Shown piece by piece: positions 13,297 to 53,591 of a DNA stretch of 64,000 bases (position 1 is its first letter; each line of letters begins with the position of its first letter). The stretch comes from Eledone cirrhosa. Lineage: Eukaryota. The notes beneath the pieces were generated by a model that searched no databases, was not told the DNA's origin, and saw only the letters and a list, made by a program, of their open reading frames with translations. The position numbers were made by a program, and so were the translations under genes. The stretch lies in NCBI GenBank assembly GCA_964016885.1, contig OZ024740.1, positions 202,802,001 to 202,866,000 on the forward strand, read 5' to 3'.

Positions 13297-13399
13297 ATAT
13301 ATATATTATAATCATGTATTGAGTACTTTACTTACTGTGGTTACCCCCGATTCGACCCGGTATATATATATATATATATATATATATATATATATATAT

Positions 13400-13920
13400 A
13401 ATATTAAGGATACTATTTATAGTTATGTATATACTATACTATATACAACTATAAACAGGTAAGGTCAGTAATTTATTACTACCTTATTACCAGTAAGATA
13501 AATAGCTCAATGGAAGAACATCATTTGTTATACAGAGCAGTAATATAGAATACACAAGAATCAAAGCTATGTTAGAACATTTAATTGCTGACAATTGTTT
13601 CTTCCAAGCCTAGGCTTGGAGTCTTCGGAGCATTACTAATAATGTTTGTACATATAATCAGCCTCCTATTCCGCTGAAGAATCATGCAGATACATATTGT
13701 GGACAACAGTGTGGGATGGATGCGACATATATTATGTTATACTATAATTGTACAATAAGATTCAAAATTCAAAATTAAAAGCTTTTGACAGATAATACAA
13801 GAGCGTCTAGTAAATAAATAAAATTAATAATGCCCCGAAGACTCCAAGCCTAGGCTTGGAAGAAACAATTGTCAGCAATTAAATGTTCTAACATAGCTTT
13901 GATTCTTGTGTATTCTATAT
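13400..13920 (-). mobile_element. PLE-type fold-back insert
   Basis: 98-bp inverted arms 13543-13640 / 13823-13920 with HHR; tail on the left; (TA)n flanks. Confidence 0.75.
13586..13632 (-). ncRNA. Type I HHR, U4C variant (inverted copy 13831-13877, plus)
   Basis: TGCT-CCGAAGA-CTCCAAGCCTAGGCTTGGAA-GAAA-CAATTGTC-AGCA. Confidence 0.75.
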
Positions 13921-14546
13921 ATATATATATACCGGGTTGAATCGTGGGTAACCGCAGTAAGTAAAGTACTCAATGCATCATTATACACATACACACAGGA
14001 TTTCTCCCGAATGAAACAGTTCTAGTCCTGTAGAAGCCATTTCTATATTAAATATATATATATGTAGAATATGATAGAATGGAAAACGAAGAATCAATGA
14101 TGCATTGGAACTCAATTTATTACGTATTACAATTGTTTCCCTGGCGAACAGCTCGAGGTGCGATCTGTGTGGGGATCGAACCTAACTCTGGATTCGCAGG
14201 TTCCTCAGACACGTCTATTGATTTCGGAGCAAATCCTCTTTCTATCATACTCAGCTCTGCAGGAGCATACAGTGCTCAACCGGCATACCGCCTATGGACG
14301 CATCCTAGATACCATAAGACATATATATATGTATGTGTGTGTATGTGTGTGTGTGTGTGTGTGTGTGTGTGTGTGTGTGTGTGTGTGTGTGTGTGTGTGT
14401 GTGTGTGTGTGTGTGTGTGTATGTATGTGTATGTATGTGTGTGTGTGTGTAGTGTCAAGAGTGTCCGTAGAAGAGATAAAGGAGAGGGTCTTCTAGGTTA
14501 TTTACAGAGATACAGAGCTAAAGTATATTATTGGTGAATTGGCATA

Positions 14547-14733
14547 GGGCGGTGAATGGCATATCGGTAGAGTGTCGGACATGCTGTCCAACATAGTTAC
14601 ATCCCTTTATGATATGAGTTCAAATCCCGCCGTGGTGAACTTTACTTTTCATGCTTATGAGGTCGATAAAATAAAGTACCAATAATGTACTGAGTAATTG
14701 CTGGCCTTGTGCCAAAAGTAGAAACAATTATTA
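14547..14733 (+). mobile_element. tRNA-derived SINE (abundant family)
   Basis: A/B-box-like head (TGGCATATCGG, GAGTTCAAATCCC) and tail GGCCTTGTGCCAAAAGTAGAAAC; many copies in the window. Confidence 0.8.
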
Positions 14734-14852
14734 TAAATGATTTGTTAGTACAGTTGCACGCTACCTACCTATGTATGTATGTATGTATGTATGTATGTAT
14801 GTATGTATGTATGTATGTATGTATGTATGTATGTATGTATGTATGTATGTAT

Positions 14853-49552: not shown

Positions 49553-49614
49553 AAATAAAGGATTATGAGTTCATGCAATTGACTTATGTTTCATCACTAT
49601 ATATATATATATAT

Positions 49615-49945
49615 TTATTATTATGTAATAAACAACATAAGGCAATTATTCCATTTACCAGTGGTTTCTTAAAAGCAAAAGATTTTGCTTTCAATCCTCA
49701 GAATGAAAAAATTCTGGTCTGTTTATTGAAATTGGATTTTAAAAAACAATTTTAAAATCCAATTTCAATAAACAGACCAGGATTTTTTCATTCTGAGGAT
49801 TGAAAGCAAAATCTTTTGCTTTTAAGAAACCACTGGTAAATGGAATAATTGCCTTATGTTGTTTATTACATAATAATAATTAAGCTCTGTTACCTACATA
49901 GAGCACTCTTTTTTCCTGGACTTTTCCGACGGAATTACTTCATTC
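49615..49945 (+). mobile_element. Fold-back insert: 130-bp arms, 5-nt loop, tail on the right
   Basis: Arms 49615-49744 / 49750-49879, loop AACAA. Confidence 0.85.
49789..49842 (+). ncRNA. Type I HHR (inverted copy 49652-49705, minus)
   Basis: CATT-CTGAGGA-TTGAAAGCAAAA(TC)TTTTGCTTTTAA-GAAA-CCACTGGTA-AATG. Confidence 0.85.
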
Positions 49946-50694
49946 ACACACACACATATATATATATATATATATATATATATATATATATAGTAGAATA
50001 ATCGAGTATCGAAAAATCGGCGCACGAGTTCACGATAACCAAAATCGAGATGAGCGGCAGAGGGCTCCATAATTCAAATAAATCAGAGCTATAACTATCG
50101 TTAAAATACCGTCACACGTAGAATATGTCTACAATCAACCAAACGACCGAAAAATTGCGATATGGAAGATTCGGGACACTCAGATAAATTATCAATAAAT
50201 CAAAAAATCAAATGAATGTAAAAAGCATATATGTGTGTGTGTGTGTGTGTGTGTGTGTGTGTGTGTGTGTGTGTGTGTGTGTGTGTGTGTGTGTGTAAAA
50301 GGTAAACAGAAATAACAACACAATCGGTGCAGTATATGGAAGGTATATATTAGGTTAACGCTTGATATAGCAGGAAGAGAGTCTTAACGTTATATATACA
50401 TACAATATAATATAAAATTGTATTTTATTTCTGTCGAGATTGTCATGCAGAACAGTACCGCCAGCGTCGTCTGTTGATGAACTGGGGAGTGTGATTCTGA
50501 CGTACTATCGACGTCACTAGAAAGTTTATAAATCAATAAGGCTTGGCACTGTATTCTGAGTTCGATCCCGATAGCATAAAAAGACAGAGGATGTTACAGT
50601 TAAGGTGTTATGACGTCAGTTGGTTAATTGCCGAGCTGAGCTGGTTCTAGCAATAACTGGTTTCTTTCTACACACCTTATATATACGTGTGTGT

Positions 50695-52185
50695 GTGTTG
50701 ATGTATTGGTTGTGTTTCTGTGTGCATGTGCATGTGTGTGTGTGTGTGTGTGTGTGTGTGTGTCTTGATGTATTGGTTGTCTTTCTGTGTGCATGTGTGT
50801 GTGTGTGTGTGTGTGTATGTGTCTCTTGATGTATTGGTTGTCTTTCTGTGTGCATGTGTATGTGTGTGTGTGTGTATGTGTCTGTTGATGTATTTGTTGT
50901 CTTTCTGTGTGCATGTGTATGTGTGTGTGTGTGTATGTGTCTCTTGATGTATTGGTTGTCTTTCTGTGTGCATGTGTATGTGTGTGTGTGTGTATGTGTC
51001 TGTTGATGTATTGGTTGTCTTTCTGTGTGCATGTGTGTGTGTGTGTGTGTGTGTATGTGTCTCTTGATGTATTGGTTGTGTTTCTGTGTGCATGTGCATG
51101 TGTGTGTGTGTGTGTGTGTGTGTGTGTGTGTCTTGATGTATTGGTTGTCTTTCTGTGTGCATGTGTGTGTGTGTGTGTGTGTGTATGTGTCTCTTGATGT
51201 ATTGGTTGTCTTTCTGTGTGCATGTGTATGTGTGTGTGTGTGTATGTGTCTGTTGATGTATTTGTTGTCTTTCTGTGTGCATGTGTATGTGTGTGTGTGT
51301 GTATGTGTCTCTTGATGTATTGGTTGTCTTTCTGTGTGCATGTGTATGTGTGTGTGTGTGTATGTGTCTGTTGATGTATTGGTTGTCTTTCTGTGTGCAT
51401 GTGTATGTGTGTGTGTGTGTATGTGTCTGTTGATGTATTGGTTGTCTTTCTGTGTGCATGTGTATGTGTGTGTGTGTGTGTATGTGTCTATTGATGTATT
51501 GGTTGTCTTTCTGTGTGCATGTGTATGTGTGTGTGTTTGTGTGTGTGTGTGTATGTGTCTGTTGATGTATTGGTTGTCTTTCTGTGTGCATGTGTATGTG
51601 TGTGTGTGTGTATGTGTCTGTTGATGTATTGGTTGTCTTTCTGTGTGCATGTGTATGTGTGTGTGTGTATGTGTCTCTTGATGTATTGGTTGTCTTTCTG
51701 TGTGCATGTGTGTGTGTGTGTGTGTATGTGTCTCTTGATGTATTGGTTGTCTTTCTGTGTGCATGTGTGTGTGTGTGTGTGTGTGTGTATGTGTCTGTTG
51801 ATCTATTGGTTGTCTTTCTGTGTGCATGTGTGTGTGTGTGTATGTGTGTATGTGTCTGTTGATGTATTGGCTGTTATGTTTCTGTGTGCATGTGTGTGTG
51901 TGTGTGTGTGTGTGTGTGTATGTGTCTCTTGATGTATTGGTTGTCTTTCTGTGTGCATGTGTATGTGTGTGTGTATGTGTCTGTTGATGTATTGGTTGTC
52001 TTTCTGTGTGCATGTGTATGTGTGTGTGTGTGTGTATGTGTCTGTTGATGTATTGGTTGTCTTTCTGTGTGCATGTGTGTGTGTGTGTGTGTATGTGTGT
52101 ATGTGTCTGTTGATGTATTGGCTGTTATGTTTCTGTGTGTAGGTGTGTGTGTGTGTGTTGATGTATTGGCTGTTATGTTTCTGTG
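50695..52185. repeat. ~60-bp minisatellite with variable (TG)n
   Basis: Repeated TTGATGTATTGGTTGTCTTTCTGTGTGCATG. Confidence 0.95.
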
Positions 52186-53591
52186 AGTATATTGACGGGA
52201 GTATGTGTGTGTGTTGATGTGTTGGTTATGTTTCTGTGTGTATATTGATGGGAGTAAGTGTGTGTGTGTGTGTGTGTGTGTGTGTGTGTGTGTGTGTGTG
52301 TGTGTGTGTGTGTGTGTGCCTGTGTAACTGTGTTTATATATGTTTGTGTGCGTTGGTGTGTCTGTAAATGGTTGTATGTCTGTGTGTGTATTGTGTGTGA
52401 TGGTGAATATGTCTGTTTGTGTATGCGTGTATATGTCGATGATTTGTGTGTACATATGTGTATTTGTGTATGTGTATGTGTGTCCGCCTGACTTGCTTCC
52501 ACGCAGTTTCCATCTACTTAGTTTCCCATAAGGCATCAGAAATACATAGCATCTATCTAAAAGGTAAAAGGTAAAGACCCCTTTCGGTCACTAATCACCA
52601 TGCGATTTACGTTAAGCCCGGCCCACACACACACACATATATATATATATATATATATATATATATATATACACACAGCCATATATACATAAACATACAT
52701 ACACATGTATGTATGTTTATGTATATATGGCTGTGTGTATATATATATGTGTGTGTGTGTGTGTGTATATATATATATATATATATATATATATATATAT
52801 ATATATGTGTGTGTGTGTGTGTATATATATATATATATATATATATATATATATATATATTTCAGTTTAGTAGTCAGTTACAAATATTAAGCTCTAAGAA
52901 AATACTTCTGAGCATTACATTATGGTTTAAAAAGTAATTAAAAAAATATTTATATATGATCAACACTACTGTGTTTTTTTTTTTTTTGCAAAATGACAAT
53001 AATTTTTTTTTTTTTTTTTTTTAAATTATTGTCATTTTGCAAAAAAAAAACACAGTAGTGTTGATCATATATTTTTTTTTTTAATTACTTTTTAAACTAT
53101 ATTATATATATATATATATATGTGTGTGGGCCGGGCTTAGCGTTGTGTCCTTGAGCAAGACACTTTATTTCACGTCGCTTCAGTTTACTCAGCTGTAGAA
53201 ATTAGTTGCGACGTCACTGGTGCCAAGTGTATTGACAATTACCTTTCCCTTGGACAACATCGGTGATATGGAGAGGGGAGACTGGTATGCCGGGGTCACA
53301 TCTGGTCTTTCACAAACAACCTTTCCCACACTTGTGCCTCGGAGGGTAACTTTCTAGGTGTAAATCGCATGGTGATTAGTGACCGAAAGAGGTCTTTACC
53401 TTTTACCTTTTAGATAGATGCTATGTATTTCTGATGCCTTATGGGAAACTAAGTAGATGGAAACTGCGTGGAAGCCCGTCAGGCGGATATCAATATTCGA
53501 AAGTCCAGTCTTGTCACACAGTGTCCTGTTCAATCTCACTGAGAATTATGTTCAGGGTACAAGTGTCTTTGGAATACTCAGCCACTTACAA

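Follow-up and report, generated by a model that had tools for sequence, protein, structure and literature searches.

In the 64,000-nucleotide stretch of Eledone cirrhosa DNA analyzed here (the window), a short piece of DNA adjoining a TA repeat has been copied in inverted orientation across that repeat in six cases. The likeliest cause is the folding back of a DNA end on the TA, which is its own complement. The six pairs lie among many Penelope-type retroelement remnants. That they are local DNA-templated copies at all is, in our judgment, highly probable; that they are local inverted duplications primed in (TA)n, mostly by host repair or replication, has about an even chance of being correct. 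As far as the sequence allows a reading, the arrangement is what local fold-back or template switching on DNA at (TA)n would leave, and does not fit the termini of MITEs.

Results

The five pairs of the form X-(TA)n-...-(TA)n-X' described in the original prediction all align as reverse complements at their coordinates, and a sixth, 52483/53487, was found from the end coordinate of the same prediction (Table 1). TA is inside the arms in all six, as predicted, which is the opposite of the PLE layout. To assess chance matching, all 84 TA blocks were compared, with near pairs defined as those within 1.5 kb, including pairs in the same block, and with an anchored score of at least 12. Of 368 near block pairs 5 reached this score, and of 3011 distant pairs none did. 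A MITE-like hairpin (31612-31705) is among the five, and without it the count is 4/368 (Fisher p=1.4e-4 against 0/3011). The scan gave 32525 a score of only 10 and missed 48914. A second statistic agreed (3/368 near vs 1/6042 distant, p=7e-4). Chance is excluded for the set as a whole, which is a small sample of six loci from one TA-rich window.

Table 1. Features of the six TA-centred pairs and of the neighboring Penelope-like remnant. Loci are named in the text by their first coordinate.
Feature	Position	Strand	Remarks
Locus 1 (13307/13985), X arm	13307..13360	+	54-nt island between two (TA)n runs; 49/54 identical to rc(13932-13985)
Locus 1, bracketed head-to-head insert	13401..13915	.	arms 13543-13640/13823-13920, 96/98; 142-nt extension on left
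Locus 1, X' arm	13932..13985	-	outer end enters short TA/CA microsatellite
Locus 2 (23502/23736), X arm	23502..23581	+	island between (CA)n(TA)n and central TA
Locus 2, central spacer	23582..23655	.	(TA)n(TC)n(TA)n
Locus 2, X' arm plus 42 nt	23656..23778	-	probably 5'-truncated hammerhead-type retro-fragment
Locus 3 (32525/33335), X arm	32519..32597	+	runs on from unique left flank; inner (TA)5
Locus 3, bracketed perfect fold-back insert	32661..33197	.	198/198, 5-nt loop; 139-nt extension
Locus 3, X' arm	33265..33342	-	island ending a few bases before CA/TG microsatellite
Penelope-like remnant, head-to-head	46440..48411	-	C-terminal GIY-YIG endonuclease frame 47114-48052, which might supply TA nicks
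Locus 4 (48498/48815), X arm	48495..48510	+	16 nt within 30-nt TA-bounded island
Locus 4, bracketed solo hammerhead element	48548..48744	+	canonical core 48646-48695; 3' end faces X'
Locus 4, X' arm	48803..48818	-	continues into unique sequence on right
Locus 5 (48914/49125), left arm	48914..49027	+	Y1, decayed TA, Y2, (TA)12, exact tandem copy of Y2
Locus 5, TA centre	49028..49037	.	10 nt
Locus 5, right arm	49038..49125	-	Y2', (TA)n, Y1'; 3-of-4-nt overlap with next part
Locus 5, 5'-truncated fragment of dispersed TA-tailed element	49122..49178	+	relatives 39443-39586, 16853-16942, 60-114
Locus 6 (52483/53487), X arm	52483..52630	+	microsatellite-bounded island without about 219 nt of X'; jump at 2-nt GT microhomology
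Locus 6, spacer	52631..53121	.	CA/TA/TG arrays; fold-back 52672-52740; fold-back insert 52861-53102 (76/79)
Locus 6, X' arm	53122..53487	-	headless SINE-like repeat, then second dispersed repeat

The layout common to the pairs fits fold-back insertions. Arms start at the edge of a TA or compound microsatellite in six of six, and in five of six loci one arm forms an island that ends at, or within 15 nt of, a microsatellite (binomial P=0.0016, with the 15-nt tolerance set after the loci had been inspected). The islands point to one pre-existing arm and one inserted copy, with the direction fixed by paralogs at 52483 and ambiguous at 13307, where both arms end in microsatellite and original and copy are therefore not assignable. 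Both arms have an inner TA at 32525 and 48914, which means that the copied stretch was composite. Because one arm is an island while the other runs into older DNA, and because the arms are unrelated between loci, the predicted copying of flanking DNA from a break in (TA)n is supported as local inverted copying that starts in self-complementary TA; the break itself is not, as the same product would result from a replication template switch. Where the copy rejoins, microhomology is 1 nt at both 23502 and 52483, and overlaps judged by eye are 4 nt at 13307, about 3 at 32525, and 3 of 4 at 48914. At the outer junctions it does not exceed chance, summing to 2 against a null of 1.27 (P=0.30; two of six loci scoreable by script), whereas the same test on the head-to-head class gave 23 vs 9.2 (P=0.001, nine loci). 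Palindromic compound microsatellites of the form (CA)n(TA)n(TG)n, which would have been another indication of fold-back, were not found, with CA and TG directly on both sides of 0 of 112 TA runs.

At 52483 the arms match at 125/128 positions (52483-52610/53360-53487) and, beyond the jump, at 21/22 (52609-52630/53122-53143). In X', the SINE-like repeat is 87% identical to 42868-42944 and the second repeat 73% identical to 8191-8246; the local partner is 98% identical, vs 73% for the paralog. The island and X' share the SINE truncation junction at which the island starts; the island is also missing about 219 nt of X', partly shared with the paralog 42868-42944, and has AA where CC is common to X' and the paralog at 8188. 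These three features identify it as the derived copy. Splicing was rejected as the cause of the skip: the missing stretch has a GT start and an AG near its end, but two further bases are gone, which fits a jump at GT microhomology. As a separate observation, 52483, alone among the six, could be taken for two repeat ends that point outward from a central microsatellite.

It had also been predicted that the arms are more diverged than the inserts, which would favor their being older repair scars. When pooled, mismatches number 22/436 in outer arms vs 38/1915 in head-to-head arms (Fisher p=0.001, Mann-Whitney p=0.010), the head-to-head count omitting 34723-34803 (1/40 mismatches) and the two MITE controls. 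Tested per nested locus, the difference is clear at 32525 (p=0.0004), weak at 13307 (p=0.098), and absent at 52483 (p=0.69). A nested-clock control, 43898 vs 44083, goes in the same direction (p=0.19). The arms at 32525 (32519-32597/33265-33342, 71/77 identical plus 2 gaps) are thus older than the insert and were not made by it. Consequently, the older scar holds for one of three nested loci, is suggestive at 13307, and is absent at 52483. At 13307, where the sole other match to X in the window is a 14-mer at 39530-39543 (E=0.023), two retro-insertions would explain the locus equally well. A rule that the TA-touching arm marks the 5' end of an insert was dropped, as both arms of head-to-head inserts point outward, and the polarity of such inserts, not being readable, was not used as an argument at 13307, 32525, or 52483.

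The inserts were said often to carry hammerheads. This holds for only two of four bracketed inserts, one of them degenerate, and so for two of six loci; 32661-33197 and 52861-53102 have none. The degenerate case is a type I hammerhead in both arms of 13548/13915, with core U4 changed to C and scores of 33 and 32 against a shuffle maximum of 31. A covariance model, R1, built from six window hammerheads, missed it (nothing at 13835). R1 recovered its training set plus inverted or paralogous copies, 44127/45548 as new, and 9149/9476 and 49648/49785 weakly. Among the 150 of 208 Rfam matches listed, Hammerhead_1 at 9150-9194 and 9478-9522 scored 31.7 bits (gathering 34), and nearly all matches in this whole-window scan were to miRNA below the gathering score, which is caused by hairpins.

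Penelope-like machinery could itself have produced the pairs, a tentative alternative that we consider rather unlikely to account for them. GIY-YIG would nick (TA)n, and RT or insertion-coupled repair would copy the target flank inverted. The copy would come with an insert after snap-back on the target and lack one after an abortive insertion. The setting speaks for it: at least 10 hammerhead cores (0 in 10 shuffles) and 11 head-to-head fold-backs share the TA arrays. The candidate endonuclease frame matches Pfam GIY-YIG at E=0.029, below cut-off, and has three homologs at E<=6e-27, two annotated as GIY-YIG and one as RT; no longer relatives of the fragment were found among 113 candidates. An Anolis PLE protein acts on both strands, cleaving and extending each (PMC11167929), and a minority of R2 junctions show priming by the cDNA on target DNA close by (PMC11371274). 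The head-to-head arm 43436-43506 likewise contains a 22-nt jump.

Three loci bear on this alternative. At 48914/49125 (48914-48953/49087-49125, 36/39 identical; inner pair 49008-49027/49038-49057, 19/20), the predicted "only microsatellite" in 48985-49037 proved wrong, since the interval holds a 20-nt direct duplicate of the left arm end; the fold-back is in fact centred on 10 nt of TA, 49028-49037. Here the copy joins the TA-tailed retro-fragment (blastn 25/25, E=6e-8; nhmmer E=2e-4) exactly where the latter is truncated at its 5' side, so the event looks insertion-coupled rather than an older scar, and the geometry is that of R2-type snap-back. The same geometry, on the target, fits 48498, where the copy is on the 5' side of the insert and the original on the 3' side, as cDNA snap-back predicts. 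This is also the weakest pair (48495-48510/48803-48818, 15/16 identical, with only 13 exact non-TA bases); its insert is related to the element at 19519-19863 (79% over 145 nt). At 23502 (23502-23581/23656-23736, 78/80 identical plus 1 gap), the arms are separated by the (TA)n(TC)n(TA)n spacer. X is probably not plain flanking DNA there: within the X arm, at a distance of 53 nt from the central TA, is the putative 3' half of a decayed hammerhead, and the arms are probably tail-to-tail 3' ends of the decayed element, facing that TA. Both arms end 53 nt past the hammerhead-like cleavage motif, compared with 38-52 nt in nine clear hammerhead arms. Opposite-strand nicks at the ends of an unmelted TA tract, each priming RT, would leave such tail-to-tail 3' ends. 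Two convergent reverse-transcription events are thus a live rival at 23502, and retro-insertions explain the locus equally well. The candidate in 23656-23778 ranks 15th in the window with its custom score of 30 and has a positional P of about 0.002, but it is degenerate: R1 gave no match, no hammerhead is among the 35 Rfam matches in 23495-23790, and minus-strand MFE folding gave no support (z=-0.76). No arm of the other five loci bears a hammerhead candidate. Also against Penelope-like machinery are the age of the 32525 arms and the 5'-truncated SINE end copied at 52483, which inward twin priming cannot give. An abortive PLE product would be indistinguishable from host repair by sequence alone.

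It is improbable that the pairs are two independent opposite insertions of one TA-targeting family, or MITE TIRs, whether of one element around a TA centre or as facing ends of two microsatellite-targeted MITEs. One such distant pair exists (16711-16852/49456-49597, 97%), the window has two Tc1/mariner-like MITEs, of which the one at about 31620-31697 is centred on a TA run, and TA-targeting MITE arrays are known in plants (PMC5907723). However, distant same-family TA-edge ends (3/3011 direct, 1/6042 inverted) lead one to expect 0.06-0.4 in 368 near pairs, vs 4-6 seen. The six X sequences share no TIR with one another or with the two MITE termini (pairwise local scores 4-9), a weak test, as the MITE termini score only 9 together. 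For five of six loci the 64-kb window holds no second significant copy of X, and extra terminal copies, a third or fourth of which facing MITEs would need, were not found in it. Target-site duplications are absent at 23502, 52483, and 48498; at 13307, 32525, and 48914 TA flanks both outer ends and a TA duplication is formally possible, but microhomology predicts the same. The 219-nt internal gap between the 52483 arms also argues against this reading. Within the window, the tests for shared or extra termini thus did not return the multicopy MITE TIRs that the original prediction had set against itself. Finally, an assembly or amplification artefact (fold-back chimeras) or chance matching in AT-rich DNA is very improbable: the context is low in complexity, the 48498 match is short, and chimeric reads could give a shape like the inner 198-nt perfect palindrome (32658-33058), but the arms differ by 2-9% substitutions plus indels, one arm of one pair carries a later tandem duplication, and the near-vs-distant enrichment excludes chance for the set.

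Discussion

We propose that a free 3' end arises within a TA array, when a TA hairpin or cruciform is cut, a fork stalls, or a nick is made. Since (TA)n is self-complementary, this end could fold back on its own strand or anneal to the opposite one, as the TA centre suggests. A polymerase would then copy the 16-150 nt adjoining the array, through inner TA and sometimes jumping at microhomology, in keeping with the products seen. The new strand would be released and rejoined to the remaining microsatellite with a 1-4 nt overlap, probably in that order, leaving the copy as the microsatellite-bounded island. The central TA would remain a target for TA-seeking retroelements, so some scars may later gain an insert, as arm divergence indicates at 32525 and suggests at 13307. 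Pol theta-type stem-loop extension is favored as the enzymatic step; a replication template switch would leave the same sequence. SD-MMEJ is another route to fold-back templated insertions at double-strand breaks.

A doubtful reading, to which we give only minor weight, is that Penelope-like machinery, working on a target that is its own complement, left the TA-centred pairs as its footprints. A single (TA)n intermediate with two nicks would then have three outcomes: a head-to-head insertion where the tract between the nicks melts, a tail-to-tail twin insertion where the tract stays unmelted (23502), and an inverted copy of the target, empty or coupled to insertion, where the nicked TA end uses its own flank for priming.

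The class of mechanism is already known from Pol theta or yeast fold-back insertions, short template switches, and R2 snap-back. At breaks in yeast, Pol delta and NHEJ give inverted fold-back insertions that are about 2-150 bp long and show 0-5 nt of microhomology (PMC11724301), Pol theta stem-loop extension yields inverted templated insertions (PMC11292364), and TA repeats are cruciform break sites repaired by Pol theta (PMC13645644). Our pairs share with the break insertions in the first two reports an inverted copy of adjacent DNA, 16-150 nt long in our case, but here the (TA)n array primes, and the events are fixed, 2-9% diverged, and known from a genome assembly alone. Template switches of the 1-4-3-2 and 3-2-1-4 types create inverted repeats from adjacent DNA in great apes, likewise with enrichment in AT-rich context (PMC5453318, PMC7954356). 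Here both switch and return points are in microsatellite; the survey in PMC7954356 filtered out repeat-masked and low-complexity donor fragments, and its relevant passages do not mention microsatellites. In R2 snap-back (PMC11371274), cDNA primes on itself or, less often, on nearby target, which fits 48914/49125 and 48498. However, that work concerns site-specific R2 in rDNA of cultured cells, and snap-back leaves empty pairs and arms older than the insert unexplained.

The bracketed inserts are of the inverted/tandem PLE kind (PMC8557442, PMC11167929), with its tail and (TA)n bias, and the same TA arrays, hammerheads, and GIY-YIG remnant are present. PLE inverted units, however, are head-to-head with TA outside, whereas the pairs have TA inside and, at 23502, putative ends that point inward. 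The microsatellite-targeted MITEs SaTar and Micron (PMC5907723) similarly form modular arrays with units joined by (TA)n, but they are multicopy, with their own terminal repeats and TA outside, whereas the X arms are locus-specific. Our literature search found no description of this TA-centred footprint.

The frequency, 6 pairs among 84 TA blocks, applies to this TA-rich window. If the process is general, TA microsatellites would be not only insertion targets but also primers that seed 30-600 bp germ-line inverted repeats. Such repeats would be mis-annotated as MITEs or miRNA hairpins, a concern raised by the many sub-threshold Rfam miRNA matches in the window. If a PLE enzyme is responsible, the pairs would be a countable genomic footprint and would bear on a step of PLE integration. 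Should the Penelope-like footprint reading be true, PLEs would generate inverted target duplications across the genome, and the pairs would directly show by what route PLE inverted structures are built and the second strand is made, a question that PMC8557442 names as open.

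TA-centred inverted pairs are a non-random feature

The TA-centred inverted pairs, in which a left arm (X) and its reverse complement (X') lie on either side of a (TA)n centre, are a real and non-random feature of the window. All five pairs listed in the original prediction exist, and a sixth, 52483/53487, is also real (Table). The DNA is animal-type with a GC content of 38%, and it holds 112 (TA)n runs of at least 10 nt, which merge into 84 TA-containing blocks, along with LINE reverse-transcriptase fragments and SINE-like dispersed repeats. The repeats appear octopus-like. We assign the names SINE, Tc1/mariner-like, and Neptune-like provisionally, from general family features. 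When all pairs of TA blocks were scanned (368 near pairs, at most 1.5 kb apart, and 3011 distant pairs), anchored inverted matches scoring at least 12 were found in 5/368 near vs. 0/3011 distant pairs. The match at 31612-31705 is a MITE-like hairpin; without it, the remaining four give p=1.4e-4. A second statistic yielded 3/368 near vs. 1/6042 distant pairs (p=7e-4). Inner TA runs led the anchored scan to score 32525 too low and to overlook 48914. Two details of the original description need correction. The centre of 48914/49125, said to be only microsatellite, includes a spacer (48985-49037) that is not pure microsatellite, and of the four bracketed inserts, said to be often hammerheads, two carry one, which is degenerate in one case.

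Features of the window, by position
Feature	Position	Strand	Remarks
TA-centred pairs, named by left arm	13307/13985, 23502/23736, 32525/33342, 48498/48818, 48914/49125, 52483/53487		
Penelope-like remnant, C-terminal GIY-YIG frame	47114-48052	-	cysteine-rich linker upstream
Short/long-arm head-to-head hammerhead inserts	9104-9668, 13401-13915, 19431-19863, 43436-43814, 44079-45770, 49612-49945		
Further hammerhead or hammerhead-like motifs	40509-40574, 41182-41252, 18809-18883, 36826-36870	-	mostly near TA arrays
Hammerhead or hammerhead-like motif	34320-34375	+	found by eye
Solo hammerhead elements	16711-16852, 49456-49597		142 nt, 97% identical; both end at TA, 50 nt past cleavage motif
Inverted unit	43894-43990/46224-46386		left arm ends within hammerhead stem II; encloses 44079-45661 insert
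Fold-back	52672-52740		inside microsatellite
Fold-back	34723-34803		1-nt loop; ends without TA
Palindrome	17967-17990		24 nt; adjoins TA
Small dispersed family ending at (TA)n	39443-39586, 16853-16942, 49122-49178, 60-114		no hammerhead found in these copies; shares 14-mer with X at 13316-13329 (E=0.023)
Small MITE-like elements	7973-8181, 31620-31697		terminal inverted repeats, TA both sides; second has central TA; presumably Tc1/mariner-like
Broken LINE remnants	26340-30887 (-), 8341-9057, 19963-20565 (+)		two cut at TA arrays; RT, RNase H-like, endonuclease-like frames split by trinucleotide arrays; one C2H2-finger C-terminus
Young dispersed duplicates	1242-1362/11755-11875, 2648-3014/14857-15237		94-95%; 11755 copy begins at TA array
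Period-52 tandem array	62819-64000		unit 82-84% to solo 49-nt copy
Solo 49-nt copy	33630-33678		beside TA; opposite strand to array unit

Asymmetry, copy direction, and mechanism

The pairs are asymmetric. At five of the six loci (23502, 52483, 48498, 32525, and 13307), one arm is an island ending at or within 15 nt of microsatellite. At the first four of these, where we take the island as the copy, the opposite arm continues into non-microsatellite DNA; at 13307 both arms end at microsatellite. Measured against the lengths of 167 segments next to TA, five island loci of six gives P=0.0016, with the 15-nt tolerance picked post hoc. Locus 52483 fixes the direction of copying, as its left island is the copy and its right arm the local source. 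This source arm, a SINE-like repeat lacking its head, begins at microsatellite. The left island shares that start junction and leaves out ~219 nt, with the jump at a GT microhomology; at two positions it has derived bases, and there the right arm matches a paralog. The six X sequences are unrelated to each other, and for none did the window hold a second significant copy at comparable identity. Inner TA is present in both arms at 32525 and 48914, so the copied stretch was composite beforehand.

All six loci are accounted for by DNA-templated fold-back or template switching primed in (TA)n. A free 3' end would arise in the TA array, the enzyme could be that of the host or of a Penelope-like element (PLE), and we infer the order in which the new strand was joined. 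Return-junction microhomology was significant (23 vs. 9.2, P=0.001, nine loci) in the head-to-head class, the 11 fold-back inserts with TA outside the arms, but not in the TA-centred class (P=0.30), where two loci were scoreable by script.

Timing of arms and inserts

The timing of the TA-centred pairs is mixed. Their arms have 22/436 mismatches vs. 38/1915 for the 11 head-to-head fold-backs (Fisher p=0.001, with 721 of the 1915 sites from a single locus; per-locus Mann-Whitney p=0.010). The original proposal that arms are older than their inserts holds at 32525, where insertion came later (outer 6/77 vs. inner 0/198, p=0.0004), and perhaps at 13307 (5/54 vs. 2/98, p=0.098), but not at 52483 (4/150 vs. 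3/79, p=0.69). Tight inner hairpins may be homogenised, which would inflate the gap between outer and inner divergence. At 48914/49125, the right arm stops where a TA-tailed dispersed element is truncated at its 5' end, and the two overlap by 3 of 4 nt; the short copy at 48498 lies 5' of a solo hammerhead element. This geometry is that expected for a copy made during insertion and counts against reading the pairs purely as older scars.

Hammerhead arm ends

A scan of the window for type I hammerhead motifs returned 13 cores, 10 of which score at least 12 vs. none in 10 shuffles, and six aligned copies have double-sided changes in 12/18 pairs. Across 20 sites, nine clear hammerhead arms have their TA junction 38-52 nt past the cleavage motif, a regularity absent from the original prediction; six arms are long (117-189 nt), two are those of 23502, and three lie at 18, 72, and 194 nt. 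Each of six head-to-head inserts combines a short and a long arm: the TA-touching arm ends 40-52 nt past the cleavage motif, while its partner runs 117-189 nt. This pattern is consistent with a single RNA being primed at two sites, and it agrees with the tail and the pair of start sites for reverse transcription reported for the Anolis PLE (PMC11167929). Twin priming accounts for at most two of the six TA-centred loci. The unit at 43894-43990/46224-46386 looks like a terminated snap-back, since its left arm breaks off at ATAT, a sequence that the TA array shares.

At 23502, X and X' both have a motif composed of GAAA, a palindromic hexamer, and TA, at a distance of 53 nt from the central TA. 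On the X' side the match extends into stem II (7/8 pairs) and the core (4/6 matches), and its hammerhead score of 30 takes rank 15 among those of the window (positional P about 0.002). No hammerhead was picked up there by covariance models. The candidate hammerhead in X' is probably real, if not proven. If so, the arms would be tail-to-tail element ends, which fit fold-back of an element end and equally fit two convergent priming events. The tail-to-tail case in PMC9977147 concerns Replitrons and has no bearing on arms of this type.

Origin of the pairs

We give host repair or replication an even chance of having made the pairs. PLE-coupled copying is a tentative alternative. The boldest reading, in which a single nicked-TA intermediate gives rise to all three layouts through PLE enzymes, is slightly more doubtful still. 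Set beside the account in PMC8557442, the GIY-YIG frame of the PLE remnant appears Neptune/Nematis-like. It is improbable that X and X' are independent insertions or MITE ends. TA could formally be a target-site duplication at 13307, 32525, and 48914, and none was found at 23502, 52483, or 48498. No X resembles either MITE-like element of the window. Distant pairs seldom have element ends of one family at their TA edges, and the rate predicts 0.06-0.4 near pairs. MITEs account for none of the six loci well, and we give almost no credence to an artefact as the source.

Relation to known structures

For comparison we drew on PMC8557442, PMC11371274, PMC13645644, PMC11292364, PMC5453318, PMC7954356, PMC5907723, PMC11724301, PMC11167929, and bioRxiv 10.64898/2026.07.22.740005. 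Among the titles and abstract openings searched, none described inverted duplications centred on TA from an invertebrate genome, which is weak evidence of novelty, as subscription literature was sparsely covered. Supplements to the PLE and R2 papers may include such structures. Templated inverted insertions are a known class, and the pairs are a variant of it primed by TA.
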